Numbered from the stretch's first letter, positions 10,207 through 55,486 are shown. The stretch: DNA of 63,757 bases from Mollicutes bacterium (GCA_003557505.1 PWOH01000029.1:1-63757); one strand, 5' to 3'. Notes: a model not told the origin generated them from the sequence alone. Program-made: numbers and translations.

Positions 10207-10231
10207 TATAATGAAATCGAGGAGTGATAGT

Positions 10232-11419
10232 GTGGAACTTTTAAATAAAGATGAAACCAAAATCAAAAAAATCAATGCCTTCATGCAAGAAATATCACAA
10301 GATTTACCCAAAGGCAAAAAGCGTGAAGTGTATGAAATGTATGAATCTTCCATCAAAGCGATTCGTCCCATTGACTTATTTTATGTAGAACAATATCGCC
10401 ACGATTCATCATTAAGTGTCGAGGCCATCAAAGAAAATGCCAACAAGTTTGTCAATGTGTTCTTTGAAGGACTGAAAAATCATGAAATGCAGTCTCATGA
10501 CCATCCTTTTTTTCAAAGTCTTTTAGACGAAAACAACGCGATAATTGCCCACCTCGATGATATGAAACAATACTTTAAAGCCGGTCCGCTTACCGAGAAC
10601 CAACAGGCATTAATCAAAGGCTTTGAAAAGTGTTTAGAATTTGAGAAGAAATATGTAAAAAAAGAAAATATTCTGTTTCCTAAAATTGAAGGGAAAATCC
10701 CTTCAAATAAACCCCTTGAGGTCATGTGGTCACTGCATGATGATGCACGTAAGCTACTCAAAGACATTATCGAAACCCTGCGTGATTTGTCCGATGAAAA
10801 AAAGACAAACCAGCAAATCGGAAAATACTACTATTTAGTCTATGGCATTATCCAGAAGGAACAACTAATTTTGTTTCCGGTTGCGAATATGGTTTTAGAT
10901 CATAAAACCATGGATAGTATGTATGAGGAATGTTTTGATTTTGGCTTTACATTTATCGAGAAAACCCGACCGAAATTTAATGATCAAATCAAAGAACCCC
11001 AGGGCAATGATGTGAAGTTTCTCTCACGTAGTGGGGAACTCACCTTTAAACAGATTGCCTTAATATTTAATCATCTACCGGTTGATATTACTTATGTGGA
11101 CAAACATGATAGAGTCAAATATTTTAATGAACGAAAAGCGCGTCATTTTCCAAGAAATCCTTCCATTATAGGCCGGTTAGTCAAACACTGCCATCCACCG
11201 AAAAGTGTTGATACGGTAGAACGTATTATTGAGGCATTTAAAAGCGGAGAAAAAGATACCGCTGAGTTTCATATTAATTTTAAAGGTCAGTTTCTTCATA
11301 TTCGTTATTTTGCGGTAATGGATGAGTCGAATCACTACGAAGGCGTATTGGAAGTCTCTCAGGATATCACCGACATTCAGAAATTAAAAGGCGATAAACG
11401 GTTGTTAGATTGGGAATAA
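10232..11419 (+). CDS. DUF438 / hemerythrin-like / PAS-domain protein (COG2461-type putative sensor)
   Basis: His-rich helical middle region (HDHPFF, WSLHDD). C-terminal PAS-like block (ITYVDKHDRVKYFN..HCHPPKS..FLHIRYFAV). Start is uncertain: in-frame GTG at 10232 is 7 nt after GGAG, while the ATG at 10211 has no RBS and abuts the terminator. Confidence 0.75.
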   Translation: MELLNKDETKIKKINAFMQEISQDLPKGKKREVYEMYESSIKAIRPIDLFYVEQYRHDSSLSVEAIKENANKFVNVFFEGLKNHEMQSHDHPFFQSLLDENNAIIAHLDDMKQYFKAGPLTENQQALIKGFEKCLEFEKKYVKKENILFPKIEGKIPSNKPLEVMWSLHDDARKLLKDIIETLRDLSDEKKTNQQIGKYYYLVYGIIQKEQLILFPVANMVLDHKTMDSMYEECFDFGFTFIEKTRPKFNDQIKEPQGNDVKFLSRSGELTFKQIALIFNHLPVDITYVDKHDRVKYFNERKARHFPRNPSIIGRLVKHCHPPKSVDTVERIIEAFKSGEKDTAEFHINFKGQFLHIRYFAVMDESNHYEGVLEVSQDITDIQKLKGDKRLLDWE

Positions 11420-12281: not shown

Positions 12282-14708
12282 ATGGAACGAAAGGTGTTAA
12301 TCGCAATAAGTGCAGTCTATATCACTGCGGTGGTATTTTTGTTTTATATATTTGACACTACCCTCACCATTCCTTTTTTAACGATTGTTCTCCTATTATT
12401 GGCAGGAAACATCGTTTTCTTTGTGTTTGTATTGAAAAACCGTCGTCGCCTCGTTGTTTCACTTACTGATCGCCTTAACACGAAAGATAAAATCCTCAGA
12501 CGAAAAGAAAGTATAGAAGAACGGATATTAAACGATATTCCAACTGGTATTGTGATGTTAAACGATGCCTTGAAAGTTGAGTTTGCCAATAGTTTCGCCA
12601 AAGCAATTTTTCAAAATCCTTTAGAGGAAAGAAGTCTTAGTACTCTGCACAAATCGCTTTATGATATGATTGTCAATGGAACATTGAACTATCCAAGAAT
12701 TGTTAAAATATACGAAGAACACTATGAAGTGCATTATCACGACCATGAACAGTCTTTGTATTTTTATAAAGTCGGAGAACTGGAACGCTTACGAAAAGCC
12801 TACGCTGATCACACCACGGTCATCGGGGTTTTACATTTGGATAACTTAGAAGATGCTTTAAGTGTCTTAGATGTTCAGGAGCGTAACGAAATTCAAGGGA
12901 AATTCCTTGGTGCCTTGGATCATTGGGCGGAACATTATGATTTCCATATTGTCCCGATTACGAACTCGAAGTTGTATGTCTATTTACATAATAAAAATTT
13001 GGATGCTGTAATCAAGGATGAATTTTCAATTATCAATGAAATTGCTCATATTTCCCGAGAAAACGATTTGATGGTCACCTTGTCCGGTGGCTTTGCTGGG
13101 GCGAATATTCCCATATCCAATTTAGCGGATATTGCTGATGAAGCACTTGATTTAGCGCTTTCTCGTGGTGGTGACCAGATTGTTATCAATATTCAAGGGG
13201 AAGATTTCAAATATTTCGGTGGTAATACCAACACCCAGGAAAAAAGAACCCGAATTTCAAGTCGCATCAATGCTAAGAAACTTGATATGTTGTTTGATGA
13301 TGCCTCAAAAGTATTCATCGTCCCGCATATTTATCCAGATAATGATGCCTTGGCTGCCGCAATTGGTGTGCTTAACATGGCGCTAGCTGCCAAGAAAGAA
13401 GCCTACATTGTCCTTGATTTTGAAACCCTTGATAAAACGGTTAAGAAAATACTTAGGCAAATGGAATACGAATACATCGTCTTACTTGATTATTTCATTT
13501 CCCCTGAAAAGGCATTACAATATCAAGACAATGATGCCTTAGTTGTTCTCGTGGATCATCACTCCAAAGGTCAATTAATCAACGAGAAACTGGTGTCACG
13601 TTCGAAAAATATTGCGATTATTGATCACCACAGAAAACTCAGTGATGCGATTGAAAATACGTTATTATCGTACATTGAACCTTATGCATCAAGTTCTTGT
13701 GAGCTGGTAGTCGAGATGCTTAATGTATTTCCTAAGCCTGTTGATATTACCGCCTTTGAAGCAACCATTATGCTTTCAGGGATGATTGTTGATACCAATA
13801 ACTTCATGTACCGTACTGGGGCAAGAACCTTTGAAGCGGCCGCGATTTTAAGAAAATACGGGGCTGATCCTTATAAAGTTAAAACGATTTTACGGGAGTC
13901 TCTCAAAGACTTACAAATCAAAGCGGATCTATTACAACGTGCTGAAGTTATTTCTAAACGTTTCTCATTAGTGATTGTTCCTGATTCATTTGAACCTGAC
14001 CGTCAAATGCTTGCTAGAATCGCCGATGACTTACTAGAAATTGATCATGTCGTTGCCGCATTTGCAATTGGAAATGTAGCCAGTGACACGGTCGGTATCT
14101 CTGCTAGGTCTTTAGAAGGCTATAATGTCCAGTTAATCATGGAAAAATTCGGTGGTGGCGGTCATTTGAATAACGCCGGTGCTCAATTATCTGATACGAC
14201 CTTAGAGCAAACCAGAGAAGAACTCATCAAAATATTAGAAGAAAGTAAACAGGAGGGAAGACCCATGAAAGTTATTTTACAAAAAGATCTTAAAGGCAAA
14301 GGGAAAAAAGGTGAAATTATCGAAGTTCCAGCTGGTTTTGGCAACTATCTTTTAACCAGTAAACAAGCGATTGAAGCCACCCCTGAAAATATGCAGTTAA
14401 TCGAAAACGAAAAAGAGAAAGCAAAAGAACAAGCCAAACAAGCATACGAAGAAGCCAAAGCCTTAAAAAAACGCATTGATTACCGTGCAGTCAAAGTTTA
14501 CGTGAAGCTTGGTAAAAATGGTAAGTTATTCGGGAAAATCAATACAAAACAAATTGCTGAGGCTTTAGAGGAACAACACGGAATTAAAATTGACAAACGT
14601 AAAATCCAACTTGATAATCCTATTACAGCACTGGGGACTTATCAAATAGAAGTCAAACTCCACAAAGACGTTACTGCGACGTTTGAACTCTTAGTATTGG
14701 AACAATAA
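12282..14708 (+). CDS. gdpP: GdpP-type c-di-AMP phosphodiesterase reading without a stop codon into ribosomal protein L9
   Basis: 808-aa ORF. Two N-terminal TM helices, a PAS-like region, a degenerate GGDEF-like region, DHH motifs (VDHHS, IDHHRK) and DHHA1 GGGGH. There is no stop before the in-frame L9 start at 14265. Confidence 0.85.
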   Translation: MERKVLIAISAVYITAVVFLFYIFDTTLTIPFLTIVLLLLAGNIVFFVFVLKNRRRLVVSLTDRLNTKDKILRRKESIEERILNDIPTGIVMLNDALKVEFANSFAKAIFQNPLEERSLSTLHKSLYDMIVNGTLNYPRIVKIYEEHYEVHYHDHEQSLYFYKVGELERLRKAYADHTTVIGVLHLDNLEDALSVLDVQERNEIQGKFLGALDHWAEHYDFHIVPITNSKLYVYLHNKNLDAVIKDEFSIINEIAHISRENDLMVTLSGGFAGANIPISNLADIADEALDLALSRGGDQIVINIQGEDFKYFGGNTNTQEKRTRISSRINAKKLDMLFDDASKVFIVPHIYPDNDALAAAIGVLNMALAAKKEAYIVLDFETLDKTVKKILRQMEYEYIVLLDYFISPEKALQYQDNDALVVLVDHHSKGQLINEKLVSRSKNIAIIDHHRKLSDAIENTLLSYIEPYASSSCELVVEMLNVFPKPVDITAFEATIMLSGMIVDTNNFMYRTGARTFEAAAILRKYGADPYKVKTILRESLKDLQIKADLLQRAEVISKRFSLVIVPDSFEPDRQMLARIADDLLEIDHVVAAFAIGNVASDTVGISARSLEGYNVQLIMEKFGGGGHLNNAGAQLSDTTLEQTREELIKILEESKQEGRPMKVILQKDLKGKGKKGEIIEVPAGFGNYLLTSKQAIEATPENMQLIENEKEKAKEQAKQAYEEAKALKKRIDYRAVKVYVKLGKNGKLFGKINTKQIAEALEEQHGIKIDKRKIQLDNPITALGTYQIEVKLHKDVTATFELLVLEQ
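14265..14708 (+). CDS. rplI: 50S ribosomal protein L9 (internal in-frame start with its own SD)
   Basis: Begins MKVILQKDLKGKGKKGEIIEVPAGFGNYLL, 147 aa. AGGAGGG at 14251-14257 lies 7 nt upstream of the ATG. Confidence 0.9.
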   Translation: MKVILQKDLKGKGKKGEIIEVPAGFGNYLLTSKQAIEATPENMQLIENEKEKAKEQAKQAYEEAKALKKRIDYRAVKVYVKLGKNGKLFGKINTKQIAEALEEQHGIKIDKRKIQLDNPITALGTYQIEVKLHKDVTATFELLVLEQ

Positions 14709-26791: not shown

Positions 26792-28984
26792 ATGCTTTTT
26801 AAGCGAAAGAAGAAAAAACTCATCCCACCACTTAAGCGCACACGGGATGAGGTGCCTTTTCAAGTCTATGAGATTCAGGAAAAGAAAAAGGATAAACCCG
26901 TCGCTGCCAAACGCGAAAACCGTTTTGTATCGCCGATTTTTGGACGTTATGTGAAGGATGAAGTTGTCATTCCGATTCGCAGTAAAGTCTCTAGAGATAT
27001 GGATAACCTTGATGCGTTTCGGACCAAACCGCGCATGACTAAAGATGAAAGAATCCGTAAATATGGCACCGCTTATCCTGAATTTGATCTTGTACGTGGT
27101 AAAAATCTTGATGAAGTTGTAGAAAGCCAAAATCAATCTCACTCCAGACGTTCGAAAAAAATTGTCGGTGCTTCTATCATTGATAACGACAATACTCAAA
27201 AAGAAGATAGAGAACCAACCCATAATAACCACGAAGAAACTCAAGACCATTCAACGCCAGATATGCCTCATGAAACCCAAACCAGCCATTCCGAAGCAAC
27301 CGCTGTTAAAAGAGATACGAGCATGTATAATTATTTAAGAAATCAAAACACACCCGAAGAAGAATCAACGGAAGAAGCGACAACCCAGGAAGAACCCCCA
27401 CCGTCTCCTCCGTCTAAATCCGCAGTAGAACAGGAAAAACCACAAGACACACCATCACAACCAACCCAAGAGTCCACTTCACAACCTGCAGCTAAACCTG
27501 CAGAAAAACAACACGCAATGCCTACATATGACAGAACCAAACAAACTGTCAAAGCCGGTGACAGCTTGTTTCCCTCCTATCAAATCCCTCAGGTTAGTTT
27601 ATTAAAAGAACCTTCAGATGACAAACCTGATTTGAGTGAGTCCATAGAACGTCAGATCAACCGACTCAATGAACTATTTTCAGAGTTCAGTGTTGGGGCT
27701 CGCGTCTTTAAACATACTGAAGGCCCAACAGTTACGCGTTATGAACTCGCATTAGAAAAAGGGGTTAAAGTCAATAAGATAACGACACTTGTCGATAATA
27801 TCAAAATGGCTTTAGAAGCAAAAGATATCCGGATTGAAGCACCGATTCCAGGCAAAAAAACCGTTGGTATAGAAGTGCCTAACGAACAAGCACAAACCGT
27901 TCATTTTGCCAATATTGTCAAGCGTTCCATGTTTAAAAATGCTGCTATGCCACTGACGATTGCTTTAGGACTAGATATTGATGGCAACCCAATCTATGCA
28001 CCAATCAAATCCATGCCGCATGGATTGATTGCCGGTGCGACGGGTAGCGGGAAAAGTGTTTGTATCAATACAATTCTGATGAGTCTTTTACTCAAATACA
28101 AACCCAGTGAACTTAAGCTAATGCTTATTGACCCTAAAATGGTCGAACTGAGCGCCTATAATCATTTACCGCATTTAATTACCCCTGTGATAACCGATGC
28201 TAAAGCCAGTGCTGCAGCCTTAAACTGGGTTGTTGAAGAAATGGAACGACGCTTTAAAACCTTTAGTGAAAACAATGCTAGAGATATTGATAGTTATAAC
28301 CGGAAAACAGAAGATGAAAGTGAAAAACTTCCTTACATTGTTATCATTGTTGATGAGTTAGCGGATCTTATGATGGTGGCTTCGCAAAATGTTGAAGAAT
28401 CAATCATGCGTATCACGCAAAAAGCTCGTGCTTGTGGGATTCACTTGATTGTCGCAACCCAACGTCCTTCTACAGATGTCATAAAAGGAACCATCAAGTC
28501 CAATATTCCTACTAGAATCGCTTTCAGTGTATCTTCTCACATTGATTCTCAAACAATCATTGATAGTGCTGGTGCAGAGACTTTGTTGGGGAAAGGTGAC
28601 ATGCTTTATGCACCATCTGGTCAAAGCAAACAAAGACTCCAAGGTGCCTTTGTCAATGATGTCGACATCGAAACCGTTACGGAGTTTATCCGTAATCAAG
28701 CAGAGCCGAATTACTTGTTTAATGAAGAAGCACTTGTTAAAAATGCGACCAAAACATTTGAACAAGACGAACTATTAGAAGATGTTGCCAGATATGTAGT
28801 GGACGCTCAAGAAGCGTCAATCAATAAAATTTCCAAAAACTTCTCGATTGGGTTTAACCGTGCGCAACGTATTGTGGAATCATTGGAAGCCGCAGGGATC
28901 GTTTCGGCTAATCTAGGGTCCAAAGCTCGAGAAGTGCTTGTAGATGATGATGACATCGAACATATACTCAATAACATGGGATGA
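26792..28984 (+). CDS. ftsK: FtsK/SpoIIIE-family DNA translocase without transmembrane domain (SftA-like)
   Basis: 730 aa. Hydrophilic basic N-terminus. P/Q/T/S/E-rich linker. Motor domain with GATGSGKSV Walker A and IVIIVDE Walker B. C-terminal gamma winged-helix. Confidence 0.92.
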   Translation: MLFKRKKKKLIPPLKRTRDEVPFQVYEIQEKKKDKPVAAKRENRFVSPIFGRYVKDEVVIPIRSKVSRDMDNLDAFRTKPRMTKDERIRKYGTAYPEFDLVRGKNLDEVVESQNQSHSRRSKKIVGASIIDNDNTQKEDREPTHNNHEETQDHSTPDMPHETQTSHSEATAVKRDTSMYNYLRNQNTPEEESTEEATTQEEPPPSPPSKSAVEQEKPQDTPSQPTQESTSQPAAKPAEKQHAMPTYDRTKQTVKAGDSLFPSYQIPQVSLLKEPSDDKPDLSESIERQINRLNELFSEFSVGARVFKHTEGPTVTRYELALEKGVKVNKITTLVDNIKMALEAKDIRIEAPIPGKKTVGIEVPNEQAQTVHFANIVKRSMFKNAAMPLTIALGLDIDGNPIYAPIKSMPHGLIAGATGSGKSVCINTILMSLLLKYKPSELKLMLIDPKMVELSAYNHLPHLITPVITDAKASAAALNWVVEEMERRFKTFSENNARDIDSYNRKTEDESEKLPYIVIIVDELADLMMVASQNVEESIMRITQKARACGIHLIVATQRPSTDVIKGTIKSNIPTRIAFSVSSHIDSQTIIDSAGAETLLGKGDMLYAPSGQSKQRLQGAFVNDVDIETVTEFIRNQAEPNYLFNEEALVKNATKTFEQDELLEDVARYVVDAQEASINKISKNFSIGFNRAQRIVESLEAAGIVSANLGSKAREVLVDDDDIEHILNNMG

Positions 28985-28988
28985 TTTT

Positions 28989-29810
28989 ATGAATAACACC
29001 GACCGCCCTGATATCCAACAAGTGGAACATGTAAAACGTAAATTGGAGCGCAAGACCATCTTTGTCTTGCTTGCGCTCTTTTTCATCGTATTTCTTCCTT
29101 TAATCAGGGATCGGTATGTAACATTTGATATGATTTATACCACTACACTTAGTGATGTGATTCCCATTATTCGTGTACCTGTGTTTTATAATACCCCCAT
29201 CCTTTATTTGTTGGCGGGAGCCATGTTGATTTATTTGGGAACCGTTATCGTGAGACTCTTTATATTAAAAGACAGTCTTGAACAATTTAAACGAATATAT
29301 CATCGCTTCGATTTAGTTAGTTTTGTTGTGTATCTTATCACAACATACATTATAGTTAATGCCTTTTTCTTTTCATTTGCGGTTGTAGAAGGTGCCAGTA
29401 TGGAACCGACGTTTCATGATGGCGATAATGTCGTCATGCAACACTGGAAAAACAGTTATAATCGAGGAGACTTAGTAGTCATACGTACCGATTATGCTGA
29501 AAGTGAGTATTTGATTAAACGTGTCATCGGGCTTCCAGGTGAATTTATTGAAATTGAGCATGGGGCCGTATTCATCGGAGGGAATATTTTGGATGAATCG
29601 GTTTATTTAGAAACGTCTGTTGAAACCCAATGCTCACTGGGCCGTCAATACTGTAGTTTTCAACTTGATGATGAACAATACTTGGTGCTTGGTGATAACC
29701 GCATAGATTCTATGGATTCAAGACACTTCGGTGCCGTTAGTATATATGATATTTACGGGACGGTAAGTTTTAGATACCGCCCACTCAGCGAACTGGGAAG
29801 GGTGAACTAA
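28989..29810 (+). CDS. lepB: Signal peptidase I with extended multi-TM N-terminus
   Basis: GASMEPT (catalytic Ser), LIKRVIG (Lys) and GDNRIDSMDSR boxes. The start at 28989 (MNNTDRP) is tentative. The ORF is open from 28944. Confidence 0.88.
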   Translation: MNNTDRPDIQQVEHVKRKLERKTIFVLLALFFIVFLPLIRDRYVTFDMIYTTTLSDVIPIIRVPVFYNTPILYLLAGAMLIYLGTVIVRLFILKDSLEQFKRIYHRFDLVSFVVYLITTYIIVNAFFFSFAVVEGASMEPTFHDGDNVVMQHWKNSYNRGDLVVIRTDYAESEYLIKRVIGLPGEFIEIEHGAVFIGGNILDESVYLETSVETQCSLGRQYCSFQLDDEQYLVLGDNRIDSMDSRHFGAVSIYDIYGTVSFRYRPLSELGRVN

Positions 29811-29811
29811 C

Positions 29812-30678
29812 ATGAGTAAAATTAACTATTATCCAGGCCATATGGCAAAGACTAAACGTCAAATAAAAGAAAAATTAAAACTCATTGATATTGTCTTTGA
29901 ACTTGTCGATGCCCGTGCCCCAAAGTCATCAATGAACCCTGAACTTCACGACATCATTGGCAATAAACCAAAATTAATCTTAATGAATAAATCTGATTTA
30001 GCAGATGGCAAAGGCATTGAAGCATGGGCAAATCATTTTCATGAACAAGGCCATCATACCTTAAAAATAAATGCTTTAAACGGAAAAAATGTTAATCGCA
30101 TCGTGCCGACCGCCAAGGATATTCTTAAAGACCAATTTGATAAAGAAGCCAAGAAAGGTCGGAAACCACGACCAATCAGAGCACTGATTATCGGAATTCC
30201 CAATGTTGGGAAAAGTACACTTATCAACAAGTTAGTGGCTAAAAAAGCAACCAAGGTGGGTGACACCCCCGGAATTACCAAACACCTGCAAATAATCCGT
30301 ATTCATCAAGATCTTGAATTGTTGGATACCCCAGGTATTTTATGGCCGAATCTTGATGATCAAACCGCCGCATTGAAACTTGCCCTACTTGGGACCATTA
30401 AAGATCATTTGGTGCCACGAGATGAAGTGGTAATTTATGGGTTTAATGTTTTACGTAAGCATTATAAAGAGGCCTTTGAAAGACGCTATGATATGACCAT
30501 TGAGACAACGGATGAGTCATTAGATATCTTTAATAAAATCGGTGAACGTCGTGGCAGTTTAGAGCGTGGCGGTGAAATCAATTATGAACGTGTCATGGAT
30601 CATTTTTTATACGATTTCAGACACCAGCAGTTCGGTCCGGTTATTTTAGAATGGCCAGAGGAATCGAATCATGTATGA
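29812..30678 (+). CDS. rbgA: Ribosome biogenesis GTPase A (YlqF)
   Basis: Circularly permuted GTPase: MNKSDL (G4) precedes GIPNVGKST (G1) and DTPG (G3). Confidence 0.95.
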   Translation: MSKINYYPGHMAKTKRQIKEKLKLIDIVFELVDARAPKSSMNPELHDIIGNKPKLILMNKSDLADGKGIEAWANHFHEQGHHTLKINALNGKNVNRIVPTAKDILKDQFDKEAKKGRKPRPIRALIIGIPNVGKSTLINKLVAKKATKVGDTPGITKHLQIIRIHQDLELLDTPGILWPNLDDQTAALKLALLGTIKDHLVPRDEVVIYGFNVLRKHYKEAFERRYDMTIETTDESLDIFNKIGERRGSLERGGEINYERVMDHFLYDFRHQQFGPVILEWPEESNHV

Positions 30679-51016: not shown

Positions 51017-51619
51017 ATGCTTAAAAAACGATATCGTAAGGCTCTGAAGTATAGTTATGGGCGCTGTGACGATTGTGATGATTTTGTGATTGGTGTTGGC
51101 GTTCAACATTATGGTGAGTTGTTTCATCGTTTTGATTCTTCGCCACTTTACAAACGTGATTTAAACCCTGAGTTAATCAACTATCTTGAAGAAGCCCGTC
51201 AGGCTATTCCTTTTAAGGATACTGTGCACCTTGAAATCAATGCGGCAGAGATTCCTGAAAATGATGAAACCGAAGCTCATGTGATCGAAGCGATGAAAAA
51301 CGCTTTTACGATAGAAGGCGATTTTATAGAACAGGAGCTTAGAAGTAACACAATTGAGTTTTCTACCTATTTGTTATTAAGTATTGTTTTTCTATTTTCT
51401 GTTTTTATTGTGCCTTATATCGAAGTGCCCAGTTTGTTGGGGTCGGTGTTAAGAGAAGGACTTTTTATTATGGTTTGGGTGTTTTTATGGCAAGCTTTCT
51501 CACTGTTTTTCTTTTCACGTTTAGAGATATATCGTCGCCGTAAGCGATTTAAATCACTGGCGAAAATGGATATCTTTTTTAAACATCGTGTGGATGAGTT
51601 AAAAAACCTTGAAGGTTAA
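51017..51619 (+). CDS. Hypothetical membrane protein
   Basis: 200 aa. Soluble N-terminal half followed by two TM helices. GAGGTG RBS. Confidence 0.6.
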   Translation: MLKKRYRKALKYSYGRCDDCDDFVIGVGVQHYGELFHRFDSSPLYKRDLNPELINYLEEARQAIPFKDTVHLEINAAEIPENDETEAHVIEAMKNAFTIEGDFIEQELRSNTIEFSTYLLLSIVFLFSVFIVPYIEVPSLLGSVLREGLFIMVWVFLWQAFSLFFFSRLEIYRRRKRFKSLAKMDIFFKHRVDELKNLEG

Positions 51620-51680
51620 TTAAAAATATAAATAGGCCTTGAATTTTAAGACAATATACCATAAACTATTCATGTAAAAC

Positions 51681-51818
51681 ATAGGTGCAAAATCAACAGG
51701 GAATTGGGTGAGAATCCCAAGCTGTCCCAGCAACCGTAATACGGACGAAATGCGTTTAACCACTGCTAAAGCGGGAAGATGCAAAGTAGGATGATGTCGA
51801 GCCGGTAGACCTACCTAT
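51681..51818 (+). promoter_or_regulatory. Cobalamin (B12) riboswitch aptamer
   Basis: ATAGGTGC..AGGGAA..GGTGAGAATCC..GCTGTCCCAGCAACCGTAA..CCACTG (B12 box)..GGGAAG..GAGCCGGTAGACCTACCTAT. The P1 stem pairs ATAGGT with ACCTAT. Possible promoter: TTGAAT (51639-51644), 17-nt spacer, TAAACT. Confidence 0.85.
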
Positions 51819-51929
51819 GATTTTTACGACTTACACTCCTGGGAAAGAGTTGTAACGTTGTCTTATGTGTGGTGAATACCGTAGTAGTTTTCTATTTCGT
51901 GTTTCACGCATTTATAGATAAACGTATAC

Positions 51930-51957
51930 ACCGTCCGGGAGGATGGTTTTTTTATTT
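51930..51957 (+). terminator. Riboswitch expression-platform terminator
   Basis: ACCGTCC-ggga-GGATGGT hairpin followed by a T7 run, 27 nt before the ATG at 51984. Confidence 0.65.
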
Positions 51958-51983
51958 TCATACACTTAAAAGGAGGCAACATA

Positions 51984-53282
51984 ATGAAAAAACTATTCTC
52001 TATCGGTCTTTTGGTGATCTTGATGGCTTTAGGTGCATGCACTGCAGATACAGAGCCCAATGATTCATTACAAGAAGATATTGAACAACTGCAACAACAA
52101 GTTTCATCGTTACAAGATGTTTTAGGGGACAAAGGAGATTCTATTGATGCGATGCAAAGTGAGATTGATGCATTGCACACAGAAATTGGTGCGCTTCAAT
52201 CGGAAATTGATGATCTTAAATCCCTTTACTATGATGGCAGTGTCGTCTTTTCGTACGAATTTGACAGCAGTGTTAAAGCACAAAGTGTTAATTATAGAGT
52301 ATCTGATGAACTCAGCGCTTTTGACTTACTAAGTGAAGCGTTTGACATTGAGTATACTGAATTCGAATGGGGCAATATGTTAAATGCGGTTGGTGCGTTA
52401 GATGCACCTTATGGCAGTTTTCTACATATCGCGAAGAACGGAACCGCTCTTGATGTAGGATTGTCTGATGCGACGTATGAAGATGGTGATCATTTCCATG
52501 TTGAAAGACAATGGTTTGATGACACCGCACATCAGTTATATGATGCGATTACGTTATTTACCGATAATCAACTGGATAACTATCTAGATGATGAAGACGG
52601 TAATTTGTCAGTGTTATCCGGATTATATCTCATGCATTACGAAGATTTTTCGCTGGTTTTAACCGATGAAGATGATTTAGAAAGTGTTGGTGAATACCAA
52701 CAAGGAATCATCAAACGTATGGTTTTAGGACAAAGTTTTGAGGCATTGCAAGATGATCTAGCGGCCCTTGATAACCCAACACATCTCTACCCTGCAAGTC
52801 TAAATGTCTTTGCCTTGCAAGGGCATGAGAGTTTTGATAATTATGCAAGTGACTTTTTAGATAAAGTTAACAATGCAGACTTTGAAACCATGGATCATGA
52901 TTCGCTGGTACTTGCGGCTTTTGCGCTTGAGTTAATCGATCACGAAGATGCCCGAGCGTATTACGATGATATCGTAGCGTATGTCTATGACAATCCTTAT
53001 GATTATTATTACGGTAAAAACTCGGTTAGCCTCGGATTAGTAATGATGCTTCTGAGTTATGAAGGTATTGCACTTGATCATGAGGATTTGATGCAAGACA
53101 ATCAAACGATTTTAGAAGTGTTCTTATCTTATCAATCAGATAATGGCGGTTTTTATTATACTGCCGATGATGAAACCATTGATGCGAATTTCTCTACACC
53201 GCAAGGCTTTTTAGCACTAAGTTATACGTATGCCGTTTATAGTGGGGAAGATGTCTTGCCGTTTGTTGTGATTGAGCAATGA
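51984..53282 (+). CDS. Surface lipoprotein: coiled-coil stalk + DUF4430-like domain + alpha/alpha-toroid (prenyltransferase-repeat-like) domain; putative corrinoid-binding protein
   Basis: 432 aa. Lipobox LGAC. Heptad region between residues ~26 and 80. DUF4430-like block (YGSFLHIAKNGTALDVGLSDATYEDGDHFHV). C-terminal repeated helices plus QSDNGGFYY. AAGGAGG RBS. Downstream of the B12 riboswitch. Confidence 0.8.
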   Translation: MKKLFSIGLLVILMALGACTADTEPNDSLQEDIEQLQQQVSSLQDVLGDKGDSIDAMQSEIDALHTEIGALQSEIDDLKSLYYDGSVVFSYEFDSSVKAQSVNYRVSDELSAFDLLSEAFDIEYTEFEWGNMLNAVGALDAPYGSFLHIAKNGTALDVGLSDATYEDGDHFHVERQWFDDTAHQLYDAITLFTDNQLDNYLDDEDGNLSVLSGLYLMHYEDFSLVLTDEDDLESVGEYQQGIIKRMVLGQSFEALQDDLAALDNPTHLYPASLNVFALQGHESFDNYASDFLDKVNNADFETMDHDSLVLAAFALELIDHEDARAYYDDIVAYVYDNPYDYYYGKNSVSLGLVMMLLSYEGIALDHEDLMQDNQTILEVFLSYQSDNGGFYYTADDETIDANFSTPQGFLALSYTYAVYSGEDVLPFVVIEQ

Positions 53283-53668
53283 AATTAAAGGTCGTTCTCT
53301 CGATTGTGGTGCTTATTGGCGTTATTCTCAGTTTCGCATTGTTTTCACCATTTTCTGCGGATTCAGAGGGGTCCGTTCAGATTATTGTTCGTGATTCTGA
53401 TACCATTGTTGTGATTGATGAGTGGGTTGATTTCTATGAAGGGGATAATCTATACCGACTCCTCGATAGAAACTACACCATTGAAACATCTGACCGATAT
53501 GGGACTTCTTATGGCCGATTATTGCTATCAATTGAGGGTATCGATACTAATTTTGAACAAACTTTTATACATATTAGTAAGGATGGAGTGAGTGCTAACC
53601 GAGGCATTGATAATATTGCTTTGGAAGATGGCTCTACCTATGAATTTGAAGTAAGAGTTCCACATTGA
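53279..53668 (+). CDS. Membrane-anchored DUF4430-like protein
   Basis: 129 aa. N-terminal hydrophobic anchor. Contains YGRLLLSIEGI...FIHISKDGVSANRGIDNIALEDGSTYEF. ATGA overlap with the upstream gene. Confidence 0.8.
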   Translation: MKLKVVLSIVVLIGVILSFALFSPFSADSEGSVQIIVRDSDTIVVIDEWVDFYEGDNLYRLLDRNYTIETSDRYGTSYGRLLLSIEGIDTNFEQTFIHISKDGVSANRGIDNIALEDGSTYEFEVRVPH

Positions 53669-53682
53669 AAGGTGGTGTAAGG

Positions 53683-54219
53683 ATGACTTCACTACGACGA
53701 ACGATTGTTTTGGCAATGAGTGTTACGATTCTCTTTGTTCAAGAACAACTCTTAACGTTTATTCCTAACGTACAATTTACAACCTTGTTGATTGTGTTAT
53801 TTGCGTCGCTTTATACGCTGCGTGAAAACATCCTCATCATCTTTGTTCATGTTATATTAGATTCGCTTTACATGGGGGCGTTCAATCCACTTTACATGAC
53901 ACCGATGTTTTTAGGATGGGTCATGATACCGTTGCTTTATAATACGGTTCTGGGCCGGACAAAAAATGAAGTGAAACTCGCGATTTTCGGATTGTTTATG
54001 GGGTTTGTATATGGATGGATGTTTATTCCATTTGTAATGTTTCAGCTCGGTATCTCACAGTTTTGGCCTTACTTATTGGCTGATATTCCGTTTGAAATTA
54101 TTATGGCAACGTCCAACTTCTTTACGGTGTTATGGTTGTATCAACCATTGTACCGTGTGCTAAGACGCGAACTAGACAATTTGGAACTTGCGGTTGTGCC
54201 ACTTAGCCGACATGGTTAA
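53683..54219 (+). CDS. Small 5-6 TM protein, ECF-transporter S-component-like (candidate CbrT-type B12 S component)
   Basis: 178 aa. Third gene of the riboswitch operon. ATG at 53683 follows AAGGTGGTG. The ORF track starts at an in-frame TTG at 53665. Confidence 0.7.
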   Translation: MTSLRRTIVLAMSVTILFVQEQLLTFIPNVQFTTLLIVLFASLYTLRENILIIFVHVILDSLYMGAFNPLYMTPMFLGWVMIPLLYNTVLGRTKNEVKLAIFGLFMGFVYGWMFIPFVMFQLGISQFWPYLLADIPFEIIMATSNFFTVLWLYQPLYRVLRRELDNLELAVVPLSRHG

Positions 54220-54229
54220 AAACCCAATA

Positions 54230-54257
54230 AAAACACTTGCTATGCAGGTGTTTTTTT
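54230..54257 (+). terminator. Terminator after the B12 operon
   Basis: AACACTTGC-tat-GCAGGTGTT hairpin followed by a T7 run. Confidence 0.8.
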
Positions 54258-54391
54258 GTTATACTACTTAATGCCGTAAAATACACACACAAATAGAGTC
54301 TATTGTTCGGAGCCTTAAAGGATTAAGGTGGGCATAGATGAGGACGTTTGTGGAGGCCAAAAAATCAAAAATAATAGGAGGACAATGTATT

Positions 54392-55486
54392 ATGGCAGTA
54401 GTATCTATGAAACAATTACTAGAGTCAGGTGTTCATTTCGGTCACCAGACACGCAGATGGAACCCTAAAATGGCTAAGTATATCTATACGAAGCGTAACG
54501 GGATTCACATCATCGATCTTCAACAAACCGTGCAATATATTGATGACGCGTATAAGCGTTTGAATGATATTGCAAGTGACGGTGGGAAACTTCTTATTGT
54601 AGGGACGAAAAAGCAAGCACACGACGCAGTTGTGGATGCCGCTAAACGTTCTGATCAATTCTATGTTTCTAAACGTTGGTTGGGTGGAACCTTGACAAAC
54701 TTTAAAACCATCCGTAAATCAATTCGTCGTTTACATCAAATTACCCAATGGGAAAAAGATGGAACGTTCGAAAGACTTCCTAAAAAGGAAAGAGTTGAAC
54801 TTCGCAAAGAACTTGCAAGACTTGAAATGTTCCTTGGCGGAATCAAAGAAATGCGTACTTTACCAGATGCGATTTTCATCGTAGACCCACGTAAAGAACA
54901 CAACGCAATTCGTGAAGCACGAAAGCTTAACATTCCAATTTTTGGGATGGTAGACACGAACTGTGATCCTGATGAAATTGACTACATTATCCCTGCAAAC
55001 GATGATGCAATTCGTTCAATTAAAGTCATTGTTAATAAAATGGCTGACGCGATGATCGAAGGATCTGGCGGACAAGCGCAACAACAAGATGCGCCTAAAC
55101 AAGCACAACCACAAAAGCAAGCACAAAAACAAGCACAACCACAACGTAAAGAAAGACCATCAGCGACAAAAGCTGATTTGAAAAAGAAAATGGATTCTTC
55201 AGCCGCTAAATCAGAAGCAAAACCAGCACCAAAAGCTGAAGCAAAACCAGCACCAAAAGCAGAAGCAAAACCAGCACCAAAAGCAGAAGCAAAACCAGCA
55301 CCAAAAGCTGAGAAAAAAACACAACCAAAAACTGAAACTAAAAAAGTTGAAGCGTCACAACCTAAAAAGGAAACTGTTGACCTTGAAAGTAAAACAGTTA
55401 GTGAACTTCGTCAACTTGCAAAAGATAAAGGGCTGTCTGGTTACTCAAAATTGAGAAAAGCTGAACTTATTGAAGCTTTGAAATAA
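54392..55486 (+). CDS. rpsB: 30S ribosomal protein S2 with a ~140-aa C-terminal extension
   Basis: Begins [33 protein letters not shown] at 54376-54381. The core ends near 55060. It is followed by a Q/A/P/K-rich repeat region and an HeH-like end. Confidence 0.95.
55214..55309 (+). repeat. 4 x 24-bp tandem repeat inside rpsB (encodes EAKPAPKA x4)
   Basis: GAAGCAAAACCAGCACCAAAAGC(T/A) repeated head-to-tail four times. The copies differ only at the last (third-codon) position. Confidence 0.95.

Follow-up and report, generated by a model that had tools for sequence, protein, structure and literature searches.

Bacterial fusions of an SLBB domain with an alpha/alpha toroid were described by Burroughs, Balaji, Iyer and Aravind in 2007 (Biol Direct 2:4; PMC1796856), who found the toroid on either side of its partner domain. 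Their study also recorded a second, paralogous SLBB protein encoded in the same operon and an association with CbiO/CbiQ-like genes of the energy-coupling factor (ECF) type, in organisms without B12 synthesis, and proposed both a role in B12 scavenging and a bacterial origin of the animal transcobalamin. Here we describe a related locus in a 63,757-nucleotide contig of a Mollicutes bacterium (GCA_003557505.1, PWOH01000029.1:1-63757; this whole stretch is the window referred to below), in which a cobalamin riboswitch precedes three genes, g1, g2 and g3, respectively encoding a lipoprotein with predicted SLBB and toroid domains, a protein with a single SLBB domain and a predicted ECF S-component. 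We put the probability at roughly 0.7 that this locus, from a wall-less bacterium resembling Izemoplasmatales, serves to scavenge vitamin B12 and is repressed by corrinoids.

The locus shares with the systems described in 2007 a surface or secreted SLBB/DUF4430-toroid fusion, with the toroid at the C-terminal end like the Bacillus protein given there as an example, a paralogous SLBB partner in the operon, a link to ECF-type transport and a predicted B12-scavenging role. It differs from them in that g1 is a stalked lipoprotein of a wall-less lineage, without an LPXTG or SLH anchor, in that its toroid is too diverged to match Pfam Prenyltrans directly, and in that the operon of the window has an S-component only and no CbiO/CbiQ-like genes; riboswitch control and a g2-g3 core are likewise absent from the account of that paper. 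A preliminary description of the window had presented g1 as a transcobalamin-like extracellular corrinoid scavenger with reversed domain order. This overstated the novelty, as both domain orders and B12 scavenging had been predicted previously (PMC1796856); since the toroid was already described on either side, the reversed order in particular is not new. The present analysis adds a well-defined, riboswitch-controlled, lipoprotein-type subfamily in wall-less Bacilli, distinguished by an invariant core of an SLBB protein and an S-component, optional stalks and the lack of dedicated ATPase genes. The statement that such proteins have not been characterised experimentally agrees with the searchable literature, where we found no experimental study of a bacterial DUF4430/transcobalamin-like protein as a B12 binder; a search for literature on B12 or ECF transport in Izimaplasma likewise found nothing.

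Transcobalamin, intrinsic factor and haptocorrin have the same two-domain logic of a toroid and a beta domain as g1, and the predicted g1 beta domain is structurally close to that of transcobalamin (see below). However, these proteins consist of an alpha6/alpha6 barrel, a linker and the beta domain, whereas in g1 the beta domain precedes the alpha domain with essentially no linker. Further, g1 has neither similarity to PF01122 nor a conserved histidine comparable to transcobalamin His173, and it is membrane-anchored where they are soluble, its B12 binding being predicted. The transporter ECF-CbrT provides a parallel to g3, which is a six-helix S-component of equal size, and both are tied to B12. 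CbrT, as characterised by Santos et al. (2018), functions with an ECF module and without a binding partner outside the cell, whereas an anchored SLBB protein is encoded ahead of g3 in every case. The L. sakei operon Lsa1836-1840 also brings together an S-component and transcobalamin beta-like and alpha-like extracellular proteins. Unlike in g1, its alpha-like and beta-like parts are separate proteins; moreover, the operon includes the A and T components, heme is the substrate reported for it, and a cobalamin riboswitch has not been reported. The BtuG and BtuH proteins of Bacteroides have unrelated folds (beta-propeller and others), are located at the outer membrane and feed the TonB-dependent BtuB rather than an ECF S-component. 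The analogy with them is a functional one, as they are surface lipoproteins of riboswitch-controlled B12 uptake loci, which capture corrinoids ahead of the transporter (see PMC8941943).

Riboswitch and control of transcription

An Rfam scan of the whole window recovered a single match, to the cobalamin riboswitch family RF00174, at 83.8 bits (E 3.7e-19; gathering score 31.5 bits) and over the full model (positions 1-189), in agreement with the aptamer core that the preliminary description had placed at 51681-51818. Homologous aptamers precede the homologous operon in Haloplasma contractile and three metagenomic relatives (L001, L002, L003 and L005). A covariance model prepared from five aptamer cores was then run on 80 species-level loci, which had been retrieved through g3 with a 10-sequence alignment, and it detected a coding-strand aptamer upstream of g3 in 71 of them. 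Eight of the nine loci without a match end at a contig edge just upstream, and the ninth, L067, is the only one among the 80 in which the flank is intact and the covariance model finds no aptamer.

The aptamer is followed by an intrinsic terminator, which corresponds to the hairpin and T run noticed earlier from 51930 onward, just 5' of the g1 Shine-Dalgarno sequence; hairpin and T run together lie 16 nt before that sequence. This leader terminator is solid: a hairpin with at least five T's is conserved in 63 of the 71 aptamer loci, 78-131 nt after P1 or, in two outlier loci, at a shorter distance, and its stems vary by clade in a compensatory fashion (CCAUCC/GGAUGG, CCAUACC/GGUAUGG, CCAUGUC/GACAUGG and CCACGUCC/GGACGUGG). 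The fold of 51800-51965 additionally contains an alternative long helix, in which the segment CUCCUGGG (51836-51843) pairs with 51934-51941, that is, with part of the 5' arm and the loop of the terminator. A stretch complementary to this arm recurs ~25-30 nt after P1 in nearly all of the related loci, and the pairing, compared with shuffles, has a median z of -2.3, with 33 of 54 loci below -2. It is thus mainly the conserved position of the complementary segment that supports an antiterminator. These observations are consistent with the transcriptional OFF switch originally suggested for the leader, and we regard it as nearly certain that the operon is switched off through the terminator when the aptamer binds cobalamin, and is on through the antiterminator at low B12.

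Conservation of the cassette

Hidden Markov models (HMMs) of four modules were run over the open reading frames (ORFs) of all 80 loci. The complete arrangement of riboswitch, g1, g2 and g3 is present in ~68 of the 80 species genomes, which belong to Izemoplasmatales (an order of Mollicutes), Acholeplasmataceae, Liberiplasma, Inordinaticella and other metagenome-assembled genomes (MAGs) of Mollicutes or Bacilli; hence, the cassette is no rarity. Complete genomes with the cassette include those of Haloplasma contractile, Liberiplasma polymorphum and Ca. Izimaplasma HR2/ZiA1. An initial impression that g1 is an ultra-rare protein, with 7 homologues in a word-indexed search, was a sensitivity artefact, as the HMMs recover it in ~68 species. 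The closest homologues of g3 (78% identity) and g1 (41-48%) are from Izemoplasmatales MAGs. Ten genomes have g2 and g3 only (L066, L067, L070, L072, L075, L076, L079, L081, L084 and L086), and in nine of these, all except L067, a riboswitch was detected upstream. Given these ten loci, and given that g2 is always directly upstream of g3 across the loci, we consider g2 and g3 to be the core of the cassette and g1 to be accessory. Where the flank is present in the close relatives examined, L002-L005, the cassette is situated between dut and the rpsB-tsf-pyrH-frr-uppS-cdsA genes; in Haloplasma it occupies a different genomic place.

In Candidatus Izemoplasma acidinucleici (L037) the regular riboswitch-g1-g2-g3 cassette has another one upstream of it, in tandem. 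This second cassette comprises a cobalamin riboswitch (678-800) and, after it, genes for a cobalamin adenosyltransferase of the PduO type (845-1399) and for diverged versions of g2 (g2', 1399-1791) and g3 (g3', 1766-2290). The linkage of PduO with g2' and g3' behind a cobalamin riboswitch provides an independent tie of the family to cobalamin metabolism, and the two cassettes of this organism may differ in corrinoid specificity. As a separate observation, the contig CAZFEG010000001.1 carries two complete, divergent riboswitch-g1-g2-g3 cassettes ~8 kb apart (L032 and L033). This contig is filed under a 'Methanosarcinales archaeon' MAG and is probably mis-binned, because its gene content is Mollicutes-like.

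The g1 lipoprotein: signal, stalk and beta domain

An AlphaFold2 (AF2) model of g1, obtained with a 7-sequence alignment, has a predicted local distance difference test score (pLDDT) of 84 and a predicted template modelling score (pTM) of 0.74. It displays a single long helix (residues 27-82), a beta-rich domain (85-177) and an all-helical domain (180-419), preceded by the N-terminal signal. The lipobox of g1 is LGAC, as seen in the preliminary description; nearly all members of the family have a lipobox, and Ala18 and Cys19 are invariant in the homologues. The ~55-residue heptad stalk suggested there corresponds to the long helix, in which 15 of the 18 a/d heptad positions are hydrophobic. 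Leucine-zipper-type Pfam matches also fall on this helix and, together with the clean heptad register, they make the coiled coil well supported. As many g1 homologues lack it, the stalk is optional. The spacer between the lipidated cysteine and the beta domain occurs in three forms, namely 1-14 residues (no stalk), 44-80 residues (stalk; 64 in the g1 of the window) and ~100 residues, with a second beta domain apparently present in the last. One relative of g1, P0216, has a coiled coil of ~160 residues. The g1 proteins of L012, L014, L015, L021 and L043, in which ~100 residues separate the main beta domain from the lipobox, give two separate matches to the beta-domain HMM; this looks like a beta-beta-alpha architecture that replaces the coiled-coil stalk.

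A Foldseek search of the Protein Data Bank (PDB) with the g1 model recovered the isolated beta domain of human transcobalamin (5no0) as the top match (E 1.9e-5, TM score 0.78, root-mean-square deviation 1.9 A over 99 columns), followed by the DUF4430 structure 3u7z (TM score 0.82) and many full-length transcobalamins. A sequence profile of the domain independently matches 3u7z in the PDB (E 0.0012). In the model the domain comprises strands at 85-93 and 96-104, a helix at 112-119, a hairpin at 122-127/130-136 and strands at 145-151 and 170-177, which is a predicted beta-grasp fold with a clade-specific hairpin inserted after the helix. A beta-hairpin that follows the helix defines the transcobalamin-like SLBB clade (PMC1796856). 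Many homologues of the window proteins carry Pfam DUF4430 (PF14478), and the DUF4430-like block postulated earlier in g1 stands on its predicted fold and the family-level profiles, despite the Pfam score of the protein itself (see below).

The alpha/alpha toroid of g1

The alpha domain of the g1 family is characterized by the motif YQxxxGxFxY...FSTPQxF. In Foldseek searches the modelled domain matched intrinsic factor (3kq4_A and 2pmv_B), drimenyl-diphosphate synthase, AprG and the TED domains of complement and TEP1. All the solved structures matched are alpha/alpha toroids (probability 1.0, 214-343 columns), with intrinsic factor aligning over 214-281 columns. An exhaustive phmmer search with g1 residues 83-432 against 1.84 billion representatives yielded 77 clusters at 50% identity. 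Among the matches were three large proteins, P0232, P0241 and P0242, which align with the alpha region only (E 2e-6 to 1e-3) and which have confident Pfam matches to DUF4430 and to the toroid domains Prenyltrans, SQHop_cyclase or TED; P0232 and P0242 additionally carry SLH anchors according to Pfam. Through this sequence bridge g1 can be placed with the bacterial surface proteins that combine DUF4430 and a toroid. Other searches did not extend the bridge: among 5.8 billion proteins, the alpha-domain profile recovered members of the same clade alone, labelled 'hypothetical' or 'DUF4430', without an annotated intermediate; of 44 family alpha domains, one reaches Pfam Prenyltrans (E 0.008); and neither g1 nor the 44-sequence alpha profile nor a C-terminal sub-profile matched transcobalamin, intrinsic factor or a prenyltransferase in PDB sequence searches. 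The toroid proposed in the preliminary description is accordingly upheld as a fold, through AF2, Foldseek and transitive sequence matches, and a sequence-level tie to transcobalamin was not found; going by the model, the relationship to the alpha domain of eukaryotic transcobalamin is at the fold level only. The order of beta domain followed by alpha domain, which had been read as reversed, is evident in g1 (85-177, then 180-425), and the two domains are contiguous in nearly all homologues.

The DxDD motif occurs in 8 of the 44 alpha domains, at unaligned positions, and the CGEQ thioester motif in none of them. There are on average 0.11 cysteines per domain, and no alignment column of the 44 sequences has histidine at a frequency of 50% or more. 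With no conserved catalytic signature, the toroid is therefore better viewed as a binding scaffold than as an enzyme. We rejected as evidence an apparent motif shared between g1 (GxFxY...FSTPQxFLAL) and human transcobalamin (GHFGNVYSTPLALQFL, a segment checked in the PDB). Some further architectures were noticed in the family. In three proteins of 287 residues (P0151, P0153 and P0154, one of which is filed under Bacteroidales) the toroid profile covers the full length and the beta domain is apparently missing; these may be stand-alone alpha subunits comparable to Lsa1840 of L. sakei. The 488-residue protein in the g1 position of L085 (4081-5547) has a beta domain without a match to the toroid HMM, and it may contain a different C-terminal module.

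The g2 and g3 proteins and the ECF question

Comparison of the g2 family with the g1 beta domain by hhalign (98.3%, E 1.3e-14) identifies g2, at the level of sequence, as a paralogue of the latter. An N-terminal hydrophobic run is present in 81 of 82 g2 homologues and a lipobox-like motif in just one; g2 is therefore predicted to be signal-anchored or exported by a signal peptide and not lipidated. A membrane anchor would be more sensible than secretion in a wall-less cell, and we accordingly favor the former. The hydrophobic run and the hhalign result fit the earlier picture of g2 as an N-terminal anchor with one DUF4430-like domain, its own PF14478 score being sub-cut-off.

The AF2 model of g3 (pLDDT 93) contains six helices, and its top Foldseek matches are all ECF S-components, with 4huq_S (TM scores 0.70/0.76) followed by RibU, PanT, FolT, BioY and ThiT. 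The protein is thus very probably an S-component, as first supposed. A profile of the g3 family has one match among PDB sequences, the 182-residue membrane chain 6fnp_A, which it covers nearly end to end (E 0.0074, 19.4 bits). The structure 6FNP is that of ECF-CbrT, an ECF transporter for vitamin B12 from Lactobacillus delbrueckii (Santos et al. 2018, eLife; PMC5997447), and we take this chain to be CbrT from its length; the comparison with CbrT that had been called for thus returned it as the sole match. Pfam PF12822 (ECF_trnsprt) is matched by 10 of 35 g3 family members (best E 1.2e-6), with no match for the g3 of the window. We found no curated NCBIfam or Pfam model matching g3 itself, and an NCBIfam scan of g1, g2 and g3 returned nothing meaningful.

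With regard to the remainder of an ECF transporter, phmmer searches with three ABC ATPase queries against the 143 ORFs of the window found no ABC ATPase even at E<=10. The statement that ecfA and ecfA' are missing from the window thus holds for the ATPases, EcfT not having been searched separately. Five of the 80 loci have an ABC ATPase within 6 kb, and there is no EcfA-like pair among these by phmmer; in L067 one ABC protein was missed by a regular-expression scan for ABC motifs. A 288-residue ORF pair at 28944-30678, considered as a candidate for ecfA and ecfA', in fact encodes a signal peptidase and a YlqF-type GTPase. In group II ECF systems the S-component genes are normally found apart from the shared module. 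The lack of an ATPase at the locus is thus the organization expected of a group II ECF S-component with a shared module elsewhere.

Proposed function and alternatives

We propose that ample intracellular cobalamin would bind the aptamer, allowing the terminator to form and transcription to stop, and that under scarce B12 the segment around 51836-51843 would pair with the 5' arm of the terminator, so that the three genes are transcribed. The g1 protein would be lipid-anchored on the outer face of the membrane and held ~8 nm away from it by the coiled-coil stalk, through which it is probably oligomeric. It would trap free corrinoid between the SLBB beta domain and the alpha/alpha toroid in the style of transcobalamin, with the chain order reversed. 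As a single SLBB domain held at the membrane by its N-terminal helix and a constant partner of g3, g2 would receive or present the corrinoid at the transporter. The g3 protein would then carry it across the membrane, most likely docking on a shared EcfA-EcfA'-EcfT module that is encoded elsewhere, as in group II systems. We are fairly confident that the substrate is a corrinoid. A hand-off from g1 to g2 to g3, for which the conserved gene order speaks, is put forward tentatively. More speculative still, and in our view somewhat doubtful, is the possibility that g2 and g3 form an ECF transporter dependent on a dedicated extracytoplasmic binding protein, with g2 docked on g3 and g1 acting as a long-reach first receptor in a three-step B12 relay.

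Several observations weigh against this proposal. In the searchable literature we found no experimental characterisation of a bacterial SLBB-toroid protein as a B12 binder, and L. sakei Lsa1836-1840, alone among systems of comparable architecture in having been studied experimentally, is reported to import heme. Both g1 (13.7 bits) and g2 (21.5 bits) fall below the PF14478 gathering cut-off of 23.8 bits. The TM scores of the toroid to intrinsic factor are modest (0.30-0.46), and terpene synthases and the TED domains of complement score about the same. Neither g1 nor any of the 44 family alpha domains matches Pfam Cobalamin_bind (PF01122), the 44-sequence alpha profile has no significant match to a PDB chain, and the apparent STP motif shared with transcobalamin is not significant, the profile scoring transcobalamin no better than 10-20% of shuffles. 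The match of g3 to CbrT is weak (E 0.0074), and 6FNP lies outside the top 50 Foldseek matches of g3. The antiterminator pairing of the window itself is weak (z about -1 against shuffles), and our view of the ECF module, B12-dependent enzymes and cob genes spans 64 kb of this genome.

The L. sakei precedent raises the question of whether heme or another tetrapyrrole is the substrate. There, deletion impairs the uptake of heme and the defect can be complemented in trans; moreover, no bacterial SLBB-toroid protein is known to bind B12, and g1 has no conserved histidine or cysteine pointing to cobalt coordination. The last argument is weakened in that intrinsic factor and haptocorrin are likewise not known to provide a protein ligand for cobalt. 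Since practically all loci whose upstream sequence is intact have a cobalamin riboswitch before the cassette, g2' and g3' of L037 share their transcript with a cobalamin adenosyltransferase gene, and the sole PDB sequence match of g3 is a B12 S-component, we consider a heme cassette quite improbable. It is also unlikely, in our estimate, that g3 dispenses with the ATPase module altogether and acts as a solitary B12 carrier with g2 as its extracellular partner. Such a function would explain the invariant pairing of g2 and g3 and the lack of EcfA, EcfA' and EcfT genes in the window or adjoining the cassette in the 80 loci (EcfT not having been searched separately), and it has a precedent in BtuM, a solitary S-component-like B12 protein (see PMC6072759). 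However, the fold of g3 resembles canonical module-dependent S-components, and the absence of a module from the locus says little when group II S-components are normally encoded apart from it. Free-living relatives among the Mollicutes usually carry ecfAA'T, which also counts against a solitary carrier.

The remaining alternatives concern g1. It might sequester or store B12, as in competitive piracy, or act as an adhesin, and be merely co-regulated with g2 and g3 rather than feed the transporter. The ten loci that manage with g2 and g3 alone would fit such a role, as would the wide variation in stalk length and beta-domain number, which is typical of surface proteins under diversifying pressure, and the occurrence of related toroid-DUF4430 domains in huge SLH-anchored surface proteins. 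Against this, the g1-g2-g3 order, with overlapping or nearly abutting frames behind one riboswitch, is kept in ~68 species; moreover, sequestration and feeding are not mutually exclusive, and BtuG of Bacteroides does both. We therefore regard a g1 function detached from transport as improbable. Finally, the toroid could be an enzyme, such as a prenyltransferase, a terpene cyclase or a corrinoid-remodelling activity, given that drimenyl-diphosphate synthases and intrinsic factor score comparably in Foldseek and that one family member touches Prenyltrans. The scattered occurrence of DxDD, the lack of zinc-ligand cysteines or histidines and of CGEQ, and the setting of the toroid, joined to an SLBB domain in an extracellular lipoprotein controlled by B12, make this extremely improbable, and we retain B12 scavenging as the likely function of the cassette.

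Features of the locus and neighboring genes

The elements of the preliminary description are present in the sequence to within a few bases of where they had been placed, including the three tightly packed genes after the riboswitch, whose coordinates were confirmed (Table 1). The g1 and g2 frames overlap by ATGA, and g2 and g3 are separated by 14 nt; an alternative, upstream in-frame TTG start of g3 at 53665 is less likely. The operon is closed by a strong terminator, with its hairpin at 54229-54255.

Table 1. Coordinates of the cassette and its regulatory elements in the window
Feature	Position	Strand	Basis
Cobalamin riboswitch aptamer	51666-51832	+	RF00174, full-length match
Candidate antiterminator segment CUCCUGGG	51836-51843	+	Minimum free energy fold; pairs with 51934-51941
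Intrinsic leader terminator	51930-51953	+	7-bp stem (51930-51947), GGGA loop, T run
g1 Shine-Dalgarno AAGGAGG	51970-51976	+	Read from sequence; 7 nt 5' of ATG 51984
g1, 432-residue lipoprotein: stalk, SLBB/DUF4430 beta domain and alpha/alpha toroid	51984-53282	+	ORF, AF2, Foldseek, family architecture
g1 signal peptide, lipobox LGAC (Cys19)	51984-52040	+	Residue conservation
g1 coiled-coil stalk, residues 27-82	52062-52229	+	AF2 helix, heptads, Pfam
g1 SLBB/DUF4430 beta domain, residues 85-177	52236-52514	+	Foldseek; profile match to 3u7z
g1 alpha domain, residues 180-425, predicted alpha/alpha toroid	52521-53258	+	AF2, Foldseek, sequence bridge
g2, 129 residues: N-terminal hydrophobic anchor/signal and one SLBB/DUF4430 domain (~31-127)	53279-53668	+	PF14478 (below cut-off), hhalign
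g3, 178-residue six-helix predicted ECF S-component, remotely CbrT-like	53683-54219	+	AF2, Foldseek, 6fnp_A match
Operon terminator before rpsB, 12-bp stem and T run	54229-54262	+	Hairpin with T run

The rest of the window consists of housekeeping genes, and a scan of 20 window genes showed no B12-dependent enzyme. A gene on the plus strand (51017-51619), lying directly upstream of the riboswitch, encodes a 200-residue protein with a hydrophobic C-terminal half and no Pfam family. It is missing at the equivalent position in the relatives, where dut directly precedes the riboswitch. Downstream of the operon, ribosomal protein S2 (54338-55486, plus strand; the true start is probably the ATG at ~54392) has a long C-terminal extension, composed of a Lys/Ala/Pro-rich region with four KPAPKAEA repeats and then a Rho_N/SAP-like domain; the combination of S2 and Rho_N is also found in L003, L004 and L005. 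A single 808-residue ORF (12282-14708, plus strand) joins a GdpP-type c-di-AMP phosphodiesterase (residues 79-654), complete with PAS, GGDEF-like, DHH and DHHA1 domains, to a complete ribosomal protein L9 (662-805). It represents either a genuine gdpP-rplI fusion or a missing gdpP stop codon, and is followed by dnaB as in Bacillus. A 402-residue protein (10211-11419, plus strand) combines hemerythrin HHE and PAS_10 domains, a composition that suggests O2- or iron-sensing signalling.

Implications

The capture of B12 by bacteria without an outer membrane is poorly understood, and CbrT and BtuM are themselves recent discoveries. The cassette described here is compact, with three small genes and one riboswitch, and it is conserved in ~80 species of free-living and host-associated wall-less Bacilli, where it occurs in natural variants with or without g1 and with stalked, unstalked or double-beta-domain forms of that protein. 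With these variants, the prediction made in 2007 can be put to the test, namely that SLBB-toroid proteins scavenge B12 in bacteria and are ancestral to the animal transcobalamin. The cassette also offers a means of testing whether an ECF S-component works with extracellular binding proteins, and of studying any selectivity among corrinoids in the communities of sediments and the gut. Should they prove to bind B12 tightly, the proteins could also find use as small B12 capture reagents. If g2 and g3 do form a transporter dependent on a binding protein, this would be an exception to the textbook view of ECF transporters as systems without need of substrate-binding proteins, and the relay from g1 onward would be a living bacterial model of the clamp of beta domain and toroid from which animal transcobalamin is proposed to descend.

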